64,000 bases of DNA, taken from positions 95,542,001-95,606,000 of the forward strand of contig OX597822.1 of assembly GCA_951406725.2 (NCBI GenBank). Direction: 5' to 3'. Shown piece by piece: positions 19,956 to 50,758 of the stretch. Below the pieces are notes generated by a model that worked only from the letters and a program-made list of their open reading frames with translations, had not been told where the DNA came from and did no database searches. Position 1 is the first letter of the stretch, and each line of letters starts with the position of its first letter. The position numbers were made by a program, and so were the translations under genes. The DNA is from Octopus vulgaris. Its lineage: Eukaryota.

Positions 19956-19987
<32 letters not shown>

Positions 19988-20474
19988 GAGTGAGCGAGCA
20001 GAGCATGCCATCAAAGTGACACTGGGGTAAAATATACGAAGCCCAGTATACCCATCATGACTACCCGTCTGATAAAGGTACACCAGGCACATGCATCACA
20101 ACCATATGTGCGCGACATGGTGATCTCATATCAAGATAAACAGCACATGACCTTGCAGGTGGGGCCCAGTTAGAATTTTCTTCAGATCGAGTAACCCATC
20201 CCGCTCAAAAGGTCCCTGAATAAGGGTTGTTTAAGGACGTTGAACGAAACACCCATGTTTCCAGAGGTGAATTATTCAAACCCCAAAGAATCCTTCTCAA
20301 CACATGGCTATGATGCTCCCCCACTACTTCTGCTCGCGATCAGAGATGCACGTATCGTCAGCCACTAAGGGACATGCTCAACTGGTTAAGGTCAAACAAC
20401 TGACAAGCAAATCTGTGGTATTGAGCAGAATATTTGCTGTAGCCCATCTTTTATACCAAGACAAAACAATGTAC
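19988..20474 (-). mobile_element. Retroposon 3' end with (AAT)n tail, embedded in an AAT microsatellite
   Basis: Same sequence in reverse complement at 47066-47250 and 49008-49191, each ending ...ctcactc(aat)n. Confidence 0.7.
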
Positions 20475-46717: not shown

Positions 46718-46823
<106 letters not shown>

Positions 46824-46882
46824 TAATAATAATAATAATAATAATAATAGTAATAGTAATAACAATAGTAATAGTAATAATA

Positions 46883-46963
<81 letters not shown>

Positions 46964-47269
46964 GTAATAATAATAACAATAGTAATAGTAATAATAATAG
47001 TAATAATAATAATAATAGTAATAATAATAATACTACTACTAATACTAATAATAATAATAATAATTAAACTGGGCTCCACCTACAAGGTCATGTGCTGTTT
47101 ATCTTGATATGAGATCACCATGTCGCGCACATATGGTTGTGATGTAGTGCCTAGTGTACCCTTATCAGACATGTAGTCATGATGGGTATACTGGGCTTCG
47201 TATATTTTACACCAGTGTCACTTTGATGGCATGCACTACTCTCTCACTCAATAATAATAATAATAATAA

Positions 47270-48117
47270 TCTATATTTAAGAGATGAGGAATTATGTACA
47301 TTATTTACATTCAACGGATATTTATCCTCATCTTGTTTGTTGTTAACACGTTTCGGTTGATATACCCTCCAGCCTTCATCAGGTGTCTTAGGGAATTTCG
47401 AACCTAGGTTCTCATTCCTAATGTATTTTTCAATGTTGTTGTTGTTGTTGTTGTTGTTATTATTATTATTATTATTAAGGTCACTGCCTGGAATCGAACT
47501 AGGTATCTTGGGGTTAGTAGCTCGCGCTCTTATCCATCATGCCATATGCCCGTGGGTAATTAAGGAGTGAATTTTTAGGGCTTATTAATCTAATATTTTC
47601 CTATCCTTCTTTAATATCCGTTCCCATATGCTGTTCATATCTGCACTTGGTCTGCTTAGGAGGTTGTTGTGTCCTAGCATATGTGCTGCTTCTTTTAGTT
47701 TTCGTATTTACCAGTAGTGTTCTCTGTCTATTATTTTAACTTCATCCCACCGGGGGAGGTGAACATGTATGGAAAAATGGAGACCACCTCCCCCTGTGTT
47801 AGGAGAGACCGAGCGCAGATATGAATAGCATATGGGAACGGATATTAAGGAAGGATAGGAAAATATTAGATTTATAAACCCTAAAAATTCACTCCATATC
47901 GCGTAGTGGTTAAGAGCGTGGGCTACTAAACCCAAGATTCCGAGTTCGATTTCAGGCAGTGACCTTAATAATAATAACATGGAAAAATACCTTAGGAATG
48001 AGAACTCAGGTTCGAAATTTCCCCAAGACACCTGGTGAAAGCGGGAAGGTATATCAGCCAAAACGTTGTGTTAACAATAAACAAGATGAGGACAAATATC
48101 CGTCAAATGTAAATAAA
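47270..48117 (-). mobile_element. Truncated Penelope-like element: GIY-YIG C-terminus between inverted terminal repeats, each with tRNA-like and hammerhead motifs
   Basis: Minus strand 47600-47765 reads HLPRWDEVKIIDREHYW*IRKLKEAAHMLGHNNLLSRPSADMNSIWERIL. Hammerhead-like motifs at 47345-47386 (-) and 48028-48071 (+). Confidence 0.82.
47895..47964 (+). promoter_or_regulatory. tRNA-like segment with Pol III A/B boxes inside the PLE terminal repeat
   Basis: tcgcgtagtgg (A box), gggctactaaaccc (anticodon-like arm), gagttcgatttc (B box). Inverted homologue at 47479-47551. Confidence 0.65.
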
Positions 48118-48650
48118 AATGATGTCAAATTTTAGCACAAGGCCAGAAATTTCAGAGGAGGGGTAAGTCGATTAGATCGAACCCAGTGTTCAACTAGTAC
48201 TTATTTTATCGACCCGGAATGAATAGGCTCGAGGTCGGAAATTTGGTGGATGGGAAAGTCGATTATTTGGAGCCCAGTACTTGACTTGGACTTATTTTAT
48301 CGAACCCAAAGGGATGAGAGGCAAAGTCCGTCTCGGCGGAATCTTAGATATCTGAACGTAAAGACGGAATAAATTCTGCTAAGTTTGGCGTCTTACTATC
48401 AATTCTGTCTGTTCGCCGCCTTTGTAATAATAACTATTTCGTGTTTTGGCACAAGGCCAGTAATTTCGTGGGAGGGTATGAGAGTCGATATCGATCACCA
48501 GTGCCCAACTCGTACTTATTTTATCAACACCGAAAGGATGAAAGGCAAAGTTGACCACAGCGGAATTTGATCTCAGAAAGTAAAGACGGACGAAATGCCG
48601 CTAAATATTTTTTCCCGACGTGCTAACGATTCTGCCAGCTCGCCACCTTT

Positions 48651-48698
<48 letters not shown>

Positions 48699-48699
48699 G

Positions 48700-48730
<31 letters not shown>

Positions 48731-48752
48731 AATGATAATAATAATAATAATG

Positions 48753-48791
<39 letters not shown>

Positions 48792-48824
48792 GTAATAGTA
48801 ATAACAATAGTAATAGTAATAATA

Positions 48825-48905
<81 letters not shown>

Positions 48906-49191
48906 GTAATAATAATAACAATAGTAATAGTAATAATAATAGTAATAATAATAATAATAGTAATAATAATAATACTACTACTAATAATAATAATAATAAT
49001 AATAATTAAACTGGGCTCCACCTACAAGGTCATGTGCTGTTTATCTTGATATGAGATCACCATGTCGCGCACATATGGTTGTGATGTAGTGCCTAGTGTA
49101 CCCTTATCAGACATGTAGTCATGATGGGTATACTGGGCTTCGTATATTTTACACCAGTGTCACTTTGATGGCATGCACTACTCTCTCACTC

Positions 49192-49222
<31 letters not shown>

Positions 49223-49224
<2 letters not shown>

Positions 49225-50074
49225 CTATATTTAAGAGATGAGGAATTATGTACATTATTTACATTCAACGGATATTTATCCTCATCTTGTTTGTTGTTAA
49301 CACGTTTCGGTTGATATACCCTCCAGCCTTCATCAGGTGTCTTAGGGAATTTCGAACCTAGGTTCTCATTCCTAATGTATTTTTCAATGTTGTTGTTGTT
49401 GTTGTTGTTGTTATTATTATTATTATTATTATTAAGGTCACTGCCTGGAATCGAACTAGGTATCTTGGGGTTAGTAGCTCGCGCTCTTATCCATCATGCC
49501 ATATGCCCGTGGGTAATTAAGGAGTGAATTTTTAGGGCTTATTAATCTAATATTTTCCTATCCTTCTTTAATATCCGTTCCCATATGCTGTTCATATTTG
49601 CACTTGGTCTGCTTAGGAGGTTGTTGTGTCCTAGCATATGTGCTGCTTCTTTTAGTTTTCGTATTTACCAGTAGTGTTCTCTGTCTATTATTTTAACTTC
49701 ATCCCACCGGGGGAGGTGAACATGTATGGAAAAATGGAGACCACCTCCCCCTGTGTTAGGAGAGACCGAGCGCAGATATGAATAGCATATGGGAACGGAT
49801 ATTAAGGAAGGATAGGAAAATATTAGATTTATAAACCCTAAAAATTCACTCCATATCGCGTAGTGGTTAAGAGCGTGGGCTACTAAACCCAAGATTCCGA
49901 GTTCGATTTCAGGCAGTGACCTTAATAATAATAACATGGAAAAATACCTTAGGAATGAGAACTCAGGTTCGAAATTTCCCCAAGACACCTGGTGAAAGCG
50001 GGAAGGTATATCAGCCAAAACGTTGTGTTAACAATAAACAAGATGAGGACAAATATCCGTCAAATGTAAATAAA
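49223..50074 (-). mobile_element. Duplicate of the 47270-48117 Penelope-like element
   Basis: Part of the tandem duplication. Confidence 0.82.
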
Positions 50075-50607
50075 AATGATGTCAAATTTTAGCACAAGGC
50101 CAGAAATTTCAGAGGAGGGGTAAGTCGATTAGATCGAACCCAGTGTTCAACTGGTACTTATTTTATCGACCCCGAATGAATAGGCTCGAGGTCGGAAATT
50201 TGGTGGATGGGAAAGTCGATTATTTGGAGCCCAGTACTTGACTTGGACTTATTTTATCGAACCCAAAGGGATGAGAGGCAAAGTCCGTCTCGGCGGAATC
50301 TTAGATATCTGAACGTAAAGACGGAATAAATTCTGCTAAGTTTGGCGTCTTACTATCAATTCTGTCTGTTCGCCGCCTTTGTAATAATAACTATTTCGTG
50401 TTTTGGCACAAGGCCAGTAATTTCGTGGGAGGGTATGAGAGTCGATATCGATCACCAGTGCCCAACTCGTACTTATTTTATCAACACCGAAAGGATGAAA
50501 GGCAAAGTTGACCACAGCGGAATTTGATCTCAGAAACTAAAGACGGACGAAATGCCGCTAAATATTTTTTCCCGACGTGCTAACGATTCTGCCAGCTCGC
50601 CACCTTT

Positions 50608-50758
<151 letters not shown>

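Follow-up and report, generated by a model that had tools for sequence, protein, structure and literature searches.

The two inverted repeats at positions 47270 to 48117 of the analyzed DNA stretch from Octopus vulgaris (64,000 nucleotides of contig OX597822.1; here, the window) are dead fragments of one family of Penelope-like retrotransposons (PLEs), and the terminal repeat of this family has a tRNA-like unit, with A and B boxes, as an integral component. On the basis of the genome-wide pile-up of 5' ends at this unit, the unit likely marks the start of the element RNA. We lean slightly toward the reading that the unit is tRNA derived and serves as an internal, probably RNA polymerase III (Pol III), promoter, with an RNA start approximately 5 to 7 nt upstream of it.

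The arms are arranged head to head and are identical at 275 of 307 ungapped columns (89.6%), with a long 3' tail on one arm only. The left arm, on the minus strand, runs from 47761 down to its end at 47270. It begins with the 3' end of an open reading frame (ORF) encoding a putative GIY-YIG C terminus (WDEVKIIDREH...RKILD; 47582..47761; one premature stop in this copy), a peptide also present in natural open frames (L163 and L098) and in protein relatives P0001 to P0004. The spacer from the stop codon to the tRNA-like unit (47552..47586) would contain the start, at about -7 to -5 in a numbering where the unit's first G is +1; its family version includes TATAA at -34, which overlaps the stop codon, TCACT at -19, and a TGCCC-AC-GGGCA palindrome. 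The spacer is followed by the unit (47479..47551; A box at 47544-47534 and B box at 47500-47490, both with substitutions), an AAT/AAC tract (47434..47478), the ATG of the element ORF of the next, tandem unit (47413..47415; frame continuous through the ribozyme), a minimal type I hammerhead (47345..47387), and start-of-ORF sequence to the distal (long-tail) 3' end (47270..47344), all on the minus strand. As read from the sequence, the inversion junction (47764..47805, plus strand) combines a sense ORF piece (47764-47798) with 7 nt of opposite-strand element sequence. The right arm (47806-48116, plus strand), which lacks 16 nt (-13..+3) at the inferred start, comprises the ORF end and spacer (47806..47894), positions +4 to +73 of the unit (47895..47964), a short AAT tract (47965..47979), a minimal hammerhead (48027..48072; predicted cut after 48067), and sequence to the proximal (short-tail) 3' end (48073..48116).

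Both ribozymes are damaged, the left one by the absence of 3 nt at the cut and a stem II mismatch and the right one by A6>G and G12>A, and neither arm has a run of four T's on the sense strand between unit and ribozyme. An earlier, sequence-only reading had described the cassette at these coordinates in both arms, the missing TTTT, and the mutated state of both ribozymes, and was right on all of them. It did not mention a 1,957-bp block that is tandemly duplicated next door (98.7% identity), so that a second copy of the complete two-armed insertion lies at 49224..50073; this is either a recent duplication or an assembly artifact. The duplicated blocks (46719-48660 and 48661-50655) are bounded by long AAT microsatellites. 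Another repeat, present at 47067-47270 and 19967-20171 (94% identity between them), ends in AAT; the AAT tract of the former received the two-armed insertion, and the same repeat flanks three other loci (L183, L219, and L266). No target site duplication was recognized around the tRNA-like unit or around the window insertion.

The family was rebuilt by a stepwise upstream walk through the genome. The element is approximately 2.7 kb long, has an 819-codon open frame in the column majority, and is ordered as ORF end, unit, AAT tract, in-frame ATG, hammerhead, and ORF start. Its terminal repeat has roughly 20,000 genome copies; three exact 21-mers gave 7,895, 4,006, and 1,029 genome matches (reversed controls, 0). 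All copies seen were decayed (about 7 to 12% off the column majority), with no intact element among them. A reverse transcriptase (RT) domain was detected in natural copy L108 (PF00078; E = 2e-10), and protein relatives at 51 to 68% identity carry PF00078/PF28514/PF26215. The C terminus is probably of the GIY-YIG type: natural copies show the motif CVYSIPCSCGRLYKGET...EH...H and align to relatives, three of which carry PF01541; Pfam on the family's own copy gave no GIY-YIG match. No extra zinc finger motif was seen by eye in the RT-endonuclease linker.

The cassette is found both after the stop codon and, in partial tandems (L124, L214, L228, and L230), directly before the ORF start; it is therefore a pseudo-LTR (pLTR). 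The pLTR hallmarks of PLEs (feature list in PMC8557442) are present, i.e., partial tandems, an inverted 5'-truncated arm, and an optional tail of 30 to 40 nt. Inverted arms, tails, the hammerhead, and its overlap with the ORF are standard PLE features. The in-frame ATG lies 35 nt upstream of the ribozyme core, and natural copy L152 stays open for >200 codons. Relative P0003 (53% identical) has the same ribozyme-encoded peptide. At its residues 18 to 41, the hammerhead is encoded in frame, and the peptide, judged from the protein, is compatible with a compensated stem II. A metagenome scan with P0003 found no DNA of relatives, all 30 P0003-derived loci were of the same family, and the matches of P0053 contained many of the same places again, followed by weak long-frame matches. 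Since these loci included no sister PLE family devoid of the unit, the family provides no empty-site control. The AAT tract of the terminal repeat has itself been a target for later insertions (L055, L057, L297, L303, L316, and L320).

The unit directly follows the stop codon in 66 of the 68 copies that reach this codon, all recovered with queries other than the unit; the other two keep its first five bases. When the unit was the only query, 45 of 58 loci had a ribozyme part within 330 nt, 4 had one beyond a later insertion, and 9 ended in or just past the AAT tract; none of the 58 had another body, i.e., an independent SINE form. From the presence of the unit in both arms, it had been argued that the unit belongs to the repeat and is not a later SINE insertion. 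The conclusion stands on the family data: members lacking the unit are not the majority, and no copy of it flanked by a target site duplication and matching an independent SINE was seen. The two-arm argument itself is weak, because both arms probably derive from one insertion event.

By its boxes, its length, and its likeness to host tRNAs, the unit is tRNA-like, without an intact cloverleaf. The consensus sequences of the A and B boxes are TRGCNNARYGG and GWTCRANNC, and the family majority matches both near perfectly and at tRNA spacing. Among host tRNAs, tRNA-Arg(TCG) was the most similar (z = 7.7 against shuffles). ARAGORN did not call the unit at default settings and called some copies Ser(ACT)-like at a 90% threshold; Rfam gave no match at E ≤ 1 for the unit or the ribozyme. 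The unit folds no better than shuffles (z, +0.5 to +0.9). It is no functional tRNA gene, with a decayed cloverleaf and no downstream T run, which host tRNAs mostly have. No donor was found in a partial sample of host tRNAs, in which the best of 30 loci and the heads of four other repeats scored alike (56 to 62). The host's remaining repeats resemble octopus SINEs. The unit shares with SINE2 elements a 5' tRNA-derived head with A and B boxes; it does not form such a lineage, having no body or tail of its own and subfamilies that are common to short and ORF-linked copies.

The least biased sample of 5' ends consisted of the first 30 positional matches for each of two exact 21-mers, with 5 shared loci removed and ends read by eye. 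Among its 35 distinct copies reaching +12, 32 end at -7 to +12, one ends at -19, and two extend into the ORF. Sets ranked by similarity were consistent with this distribution (25 of 28 copies end there, 0 of 28 pass -25, and 2 of 9 pass in a third set). Upstream of the unit, 28 copies extend by a mean of at least 329 nt, and the loss is at most about 0.3% per nt. After correction by match rates (30/83, 20/70, and 25/60), the three 21-mers correspond to about 21,800, 14,000, and 2,500 genome copies, i.e., a drop of approximately 5.7-fold over 70 nt, compared with 1.6-fold over the preceding 55 nt plus the tract. In sequencing runs from three other organisms, matches also stop at -7 and fold back, and the unit is joined to the ORF end in contigs of three organisms; summed contig depths, which are not copy numbers, fall at the boundary. 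Two copies (L152 and L205) have their start at the unit and extend into the ORF, by approximately 1.2 kb in L152, and the unit precedes the ORF start in three of the partial tandems (L214, L228, and L230). Three of the five ORF-start copies that reach the unit pass it, and therefore read-through tandem RNA exists too. In a control, a second hammerhead repeat group, A/B boxes were found in 0 of 19 correctly oriented loci and T runs in 20 of 20, and the 5' ends were scattered.

Given a real start at the unit, Pol III would be the better candidate by a fair measure, because the A and B boxes are intact while the cloverleaf is decayed and because the element has no T4 run. The start would lie 12 to 14 nt upstream of the A box. 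T4+ runs number 0 in 2,723 nt, against an expectation of 2.5 to 4.7 (P = 0.030, 0.008, 0.012, and 0.067 under four null models), and T4 runs are near expectation in LINE ORFs of four families from the same genome. G4 runs are absent as well (P = 0.03 to 0.28), and the T4 deficit is a weak sign of Pol III. In one raw RNA-seq data set of a related organism, the two strands are equally represented, and no point stands out at which molecules start or stop, a pattern expected from read-through of embedded copies. Also counting against Pol III, an uncapped RNA of approximately 830 codons would need translating, and Pol III elements have been argued to stay under 1.3 kb (PMC10886601). Ribozyme-linked cap-independent initiation has been reported for viruses, where the ribozyme lies upstream of the coding region (PMC13725137). 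The full version of the Pol III reading is doubtful as a package; it would have the whole 2.7-kb RNA (mRNA and template) made by Pol III from a captured tRNA promoter, free of T4 and translated without a cap, and would include a fossil trace of RT jumps over the element's own ribozyme cut.

The most serious alternative, which we consider possible without thinking it probable, keeps the start site and assigns it to Pol II through TATAA at -34, with the unit in the 5' untranslated region (UTR) either as a fixed passenger or as a helper that binds TFIIIC. TATAA lies 27 to 32 nt upstream of the piled-up ends, a capped RNA would solve the translation problem, and the weakness of the T4 deficit also favors Pol II. 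The known PLE promoters are moreover of the Pol II type, with Inr/DPE in Drosophila virilis Penelope (PMC2377424) and TATA plus TCACT in Adineta Pen2a (PMC3846280). The intact A/B boxes in a decayed cloverleaf do not fit this alternative, and the Inr-like TCACT at -19 is too near TATAA; only two copies (L303 and L068) end near TCACT, and an Inr start at -17 was rejected. Furthermore, an upstream TATA is often found in tRNA genes too, and no intron is needed. Of the three roles that the sequence-only reading had offered for the short RNA (promoter, primer, or SINE-like parasite), the promoter has thus gained indirect support from the 5'-end pile-up, with Pol III favored as the polymerase and Pol II as its rival, and nothing was found in favor of the primer.

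It is improbable that no start exists here and that the ends pile up instead because the TGCCC-AC-GGGCA palindrome makes cDNA on a longer tandem RNA stall or snap back, or because the RNA is processed there. Many copies do fold back exactly at the palindrome, and self-priming at 5' palindromes has been proposed for other PLEs (PMC3846280). The stem, however, is just 5 bp long, the same end window is used by copies without an inverted arm (e.g., L041, L043, L048, L049, L051, L054, and L064, and further L174, L179, L311, and L319), and inverted arms arise at many other positions too. As for processing, RNase P was rejected: it would cut at +1, many ends lie at -7 to -2, and the cloverleaf is decayed. 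The occurrence of palindromes at the 5' ends of other PLE pLTRs with no tRNA unit reported in the available text (PMC3846280) counts against the promoter reading.

The 3' ends of 186 copies, obtained from queries without the tail and with the tract counted as one position, fall mainly at +210 to +229 (89 copies) and at +240 to +249 (74 copies), and 2 lie at the cut. The two sites are approximately 55 and 85 nt past the cut and about 120 to 130 and 155 nt after the ATG, and both lie inside the ORF start. At the 5' ends there is a slight excess at the cut (13 of 127), and the cut-to-cut tandems of Sm-alpha and non-LTR retrozymes were not found. With only 2 of 186 copies ending at the cut, ribozyme-ended RNA is therefore not what gets inserted, contrary to the proposed short Pol III RNA ending at GUU.

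The predicted hammerhead is of the minimal PLE type (extra base between 9 and 10.1, G10.1-C11.1, and palindromic 15.2-16.2), which needs a dimer for cleavage (PMC4209133). Its core is intact in 152 of 338 sampled copies, and the sole frequent non-CpG core change affects N7, a free position that coincides with a third codon position. Any deletion at the cut was found in 53 of 225 unbiased copies, compared with 1 to 11 in 4-nt windows elsewhere, and a precise 3-nt loss was found in 24 of 225, compared with 8 in neighboring perfect AAC repeats. This recurrent in-frame deletion (family position +162 to +166, corresponding in the left arm to window 47349-47350) is independent of subfamily and ORF linkage (p = 0.06 to 1) and also occurs in another organism's RNA (217 reads at a depth of 3,968). 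The hot spot suggests some cleavage in vivo, and the 3-nt loss may result from a jump over the nick at a GU match, which would remove just these bases; DNA slippage is another possible source. A GTTGT-GTTA-ACAAC sequence at family position +165 to +178 may form a hairpin in competition with stem I of the ribozyme, and it is lost in several larger deletions.

Four markers define two subfamilies (mutual p ≤ 3e-8) and are equally represented in short and ORF-linked copies (p = 0.83, 0.86, 0.58, and 0.08). The best reading of the short copies is that they are cDNAs made from the 5' end of the element RNA itself, not a separate parasite; with internal initiation, their ends would so map the RNA start. 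We regard it as very unlikely that the short unit of tRNA head plus hammerhead has master copies of its own and is, as an independent SINE-like parasite, mobilized by the Penelope protein. Such a parasite would fit the approximately 5-to-1 excess of short over ORF-linked copies, their SINE-like anatomy with retained A/B boxes, and the 9 of 58 tRNA-query loci that end in or just past the AAT tract. Against it, the four linked markers do not separate short from ORF-linked copies, and all nine tract-ending loci have an inverted arm, a fold-back, or an ORF link upstream; in addition, the template of Poseidon_Ac (PAc), an Anolis element of the Penelope/Poseidon clade, must include ORF sequence beyond the part that is copied (PMC11167929), and solo copies lack such sequence. 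Least credible of all is a Pol III RNA of 170 to 200 nt, hammerhead ended at GUU and used as a primer or transposing unit as in Sm-alpha: the intact cores, the N7 position of the frequent change, and the deletion hot spot are in its favor, but copies almost never end at the cut, monomers bounded by cut sites were not seen, and the minimal ribozyme needs a dimer (PMC4209133). The RNA-seq reads, from libraries that could not reveal it, also contained no end of this kind.

We propose the following mechanism. Transcription would start approximately 5 to 7 nt upstream of the unit, probably by Pol III from the unit. By analogy with Anolis PAc, reverse transcription would begin inside the RNA, approximately 120 to 155 nt past the ATG, and copy back to the 5' end. 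Initiation from the first junction would yield the abundant copies of approximately 250 nt that end at the start site, and the cDNA would often fold back on the small palindrome there to form the inverted arm. Initiation from a later junction of a tandem RNA would yield ORF-containing copies like that in the window. The RNA template would be mostly uncut by the ribozyme; when it is cut, we infer that the enzyme jumps the nick on the 2-nt GU match and leaves the 3-nt deletion. The unit probably goes back to a single arrival, in which a short insert of tRNA origin with an AAT tail entered the 3' UTR of an ancestor.

Of the known systems, PAc resembles the octopus family in several respects (PMC11167929). 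It has a single ORF with RT followed by GIY-YIG (putative in the octopus family), pLTRs in partial tandems, a hammerhead that overlaps the ORF start and is run through uncut, and two 3' ends approximately 30 nt apart inside the ORF start; its RT initiates internally at two sites, with uncut RNA as the main substrate. Unlike PAc, the octopus pLTR starts with the tRNA-derived A/B-box unit and an AAT tract, its ATG lies upstream of the whole ribozyme, and its family has a recurrent deletion at the cut, while the PAc RNA-seq, as described, has no reads ending there (PMC11167929). D. virilis Penelope (PMC2377424) and Adineta Pen2/Pen3 (PMC3846280) likewise have an internal pLTR promoter, an inverted 5' arm, and a palindrome at the pLTR 5' end, but their promoters are of the Pol II type (Inr/DPE; TATA plus Inr), Penelope has an intron, and no tRNA is mentioned in the available parts of these papers.

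Schistosoma Sm-alpha/Sj-alpha also place Pol III boxes before a hammerhead (review, PMC6765202). Sm-alpha is, however, noncoding and released from multimers by its ribozyme, whereas the octopus cassette is the terminal repeat of a coding element with ends that ignore the cut. TRIMp3 elements (Cassandra, Helenus, and Ajax) similarly have, within a terminal repeat, a captured Pol III promoter that derives from a small RNA and was probably acquired via SINE insertion (PMC10886601). They are nonautonomous, noncoding LTR elements of <1.3 kb with a primer-binding site and a polypurine tract, whereas the octopus family encodes a PLE ORF in an autonomous element of approximately 2.7 kb; the resemblance is thus one of working principle only. 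Animal non-LTR retrozymes are short hammerhead repeats related to PLE pLTRs (PMC7229834; bioRxiv 10.64898/2026.07.22.740005); they form tandem arrays of cut-to-cut monomers, unlike the mostly solo or head-to-head octopus copies, and the accessible part of the preprint makes no mention of tRNA or Pol III. RTE-1_DAn and relatives are autonomous retrotransposons with a tRNA-like sequence, but they are LINEs, not PLEs, and the position and function of that sequence are not given in the accessible text (PMC5786205). Within the open literature covered, no PLE carrying a promoter of tRNA type was found; Repbase, Dfam, subscription papers, or supplements (e.g., the PMC13282606 repeat library) may contain the family.

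The very few PLE promoters that have been dissected are of the Pol II type, and autonomous retrotransposons are assumed to be beyond the reach of Pol III (PMC10886601). A high-copy PLE that maps its RNA start to a tRNA-derived unit would make this assumption testable with one reporter. For repeat annotation, it matters that SINE-looking repeats can be by-products of internal reverse-transcription starts. The cut-site deletion is also relevant to the question of in vivo cleavage by PLE hammerheads and to what the enzyme does afterward.

Two other repeat groups were observed in the course of the analysis. A very young LINE family (e.g., G000:C16:45338131) has many equal-score copies and 949-amino-acid open frames. 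The second hammerhead group (L411 to L430; e.g., G000:C1:12574780) has 36 exact pattern matches and no PLE ORF within 1.5 kb (tblastn), and three of its loci (L421 to L423) share >1.2 kb at 96 to 97% identity.
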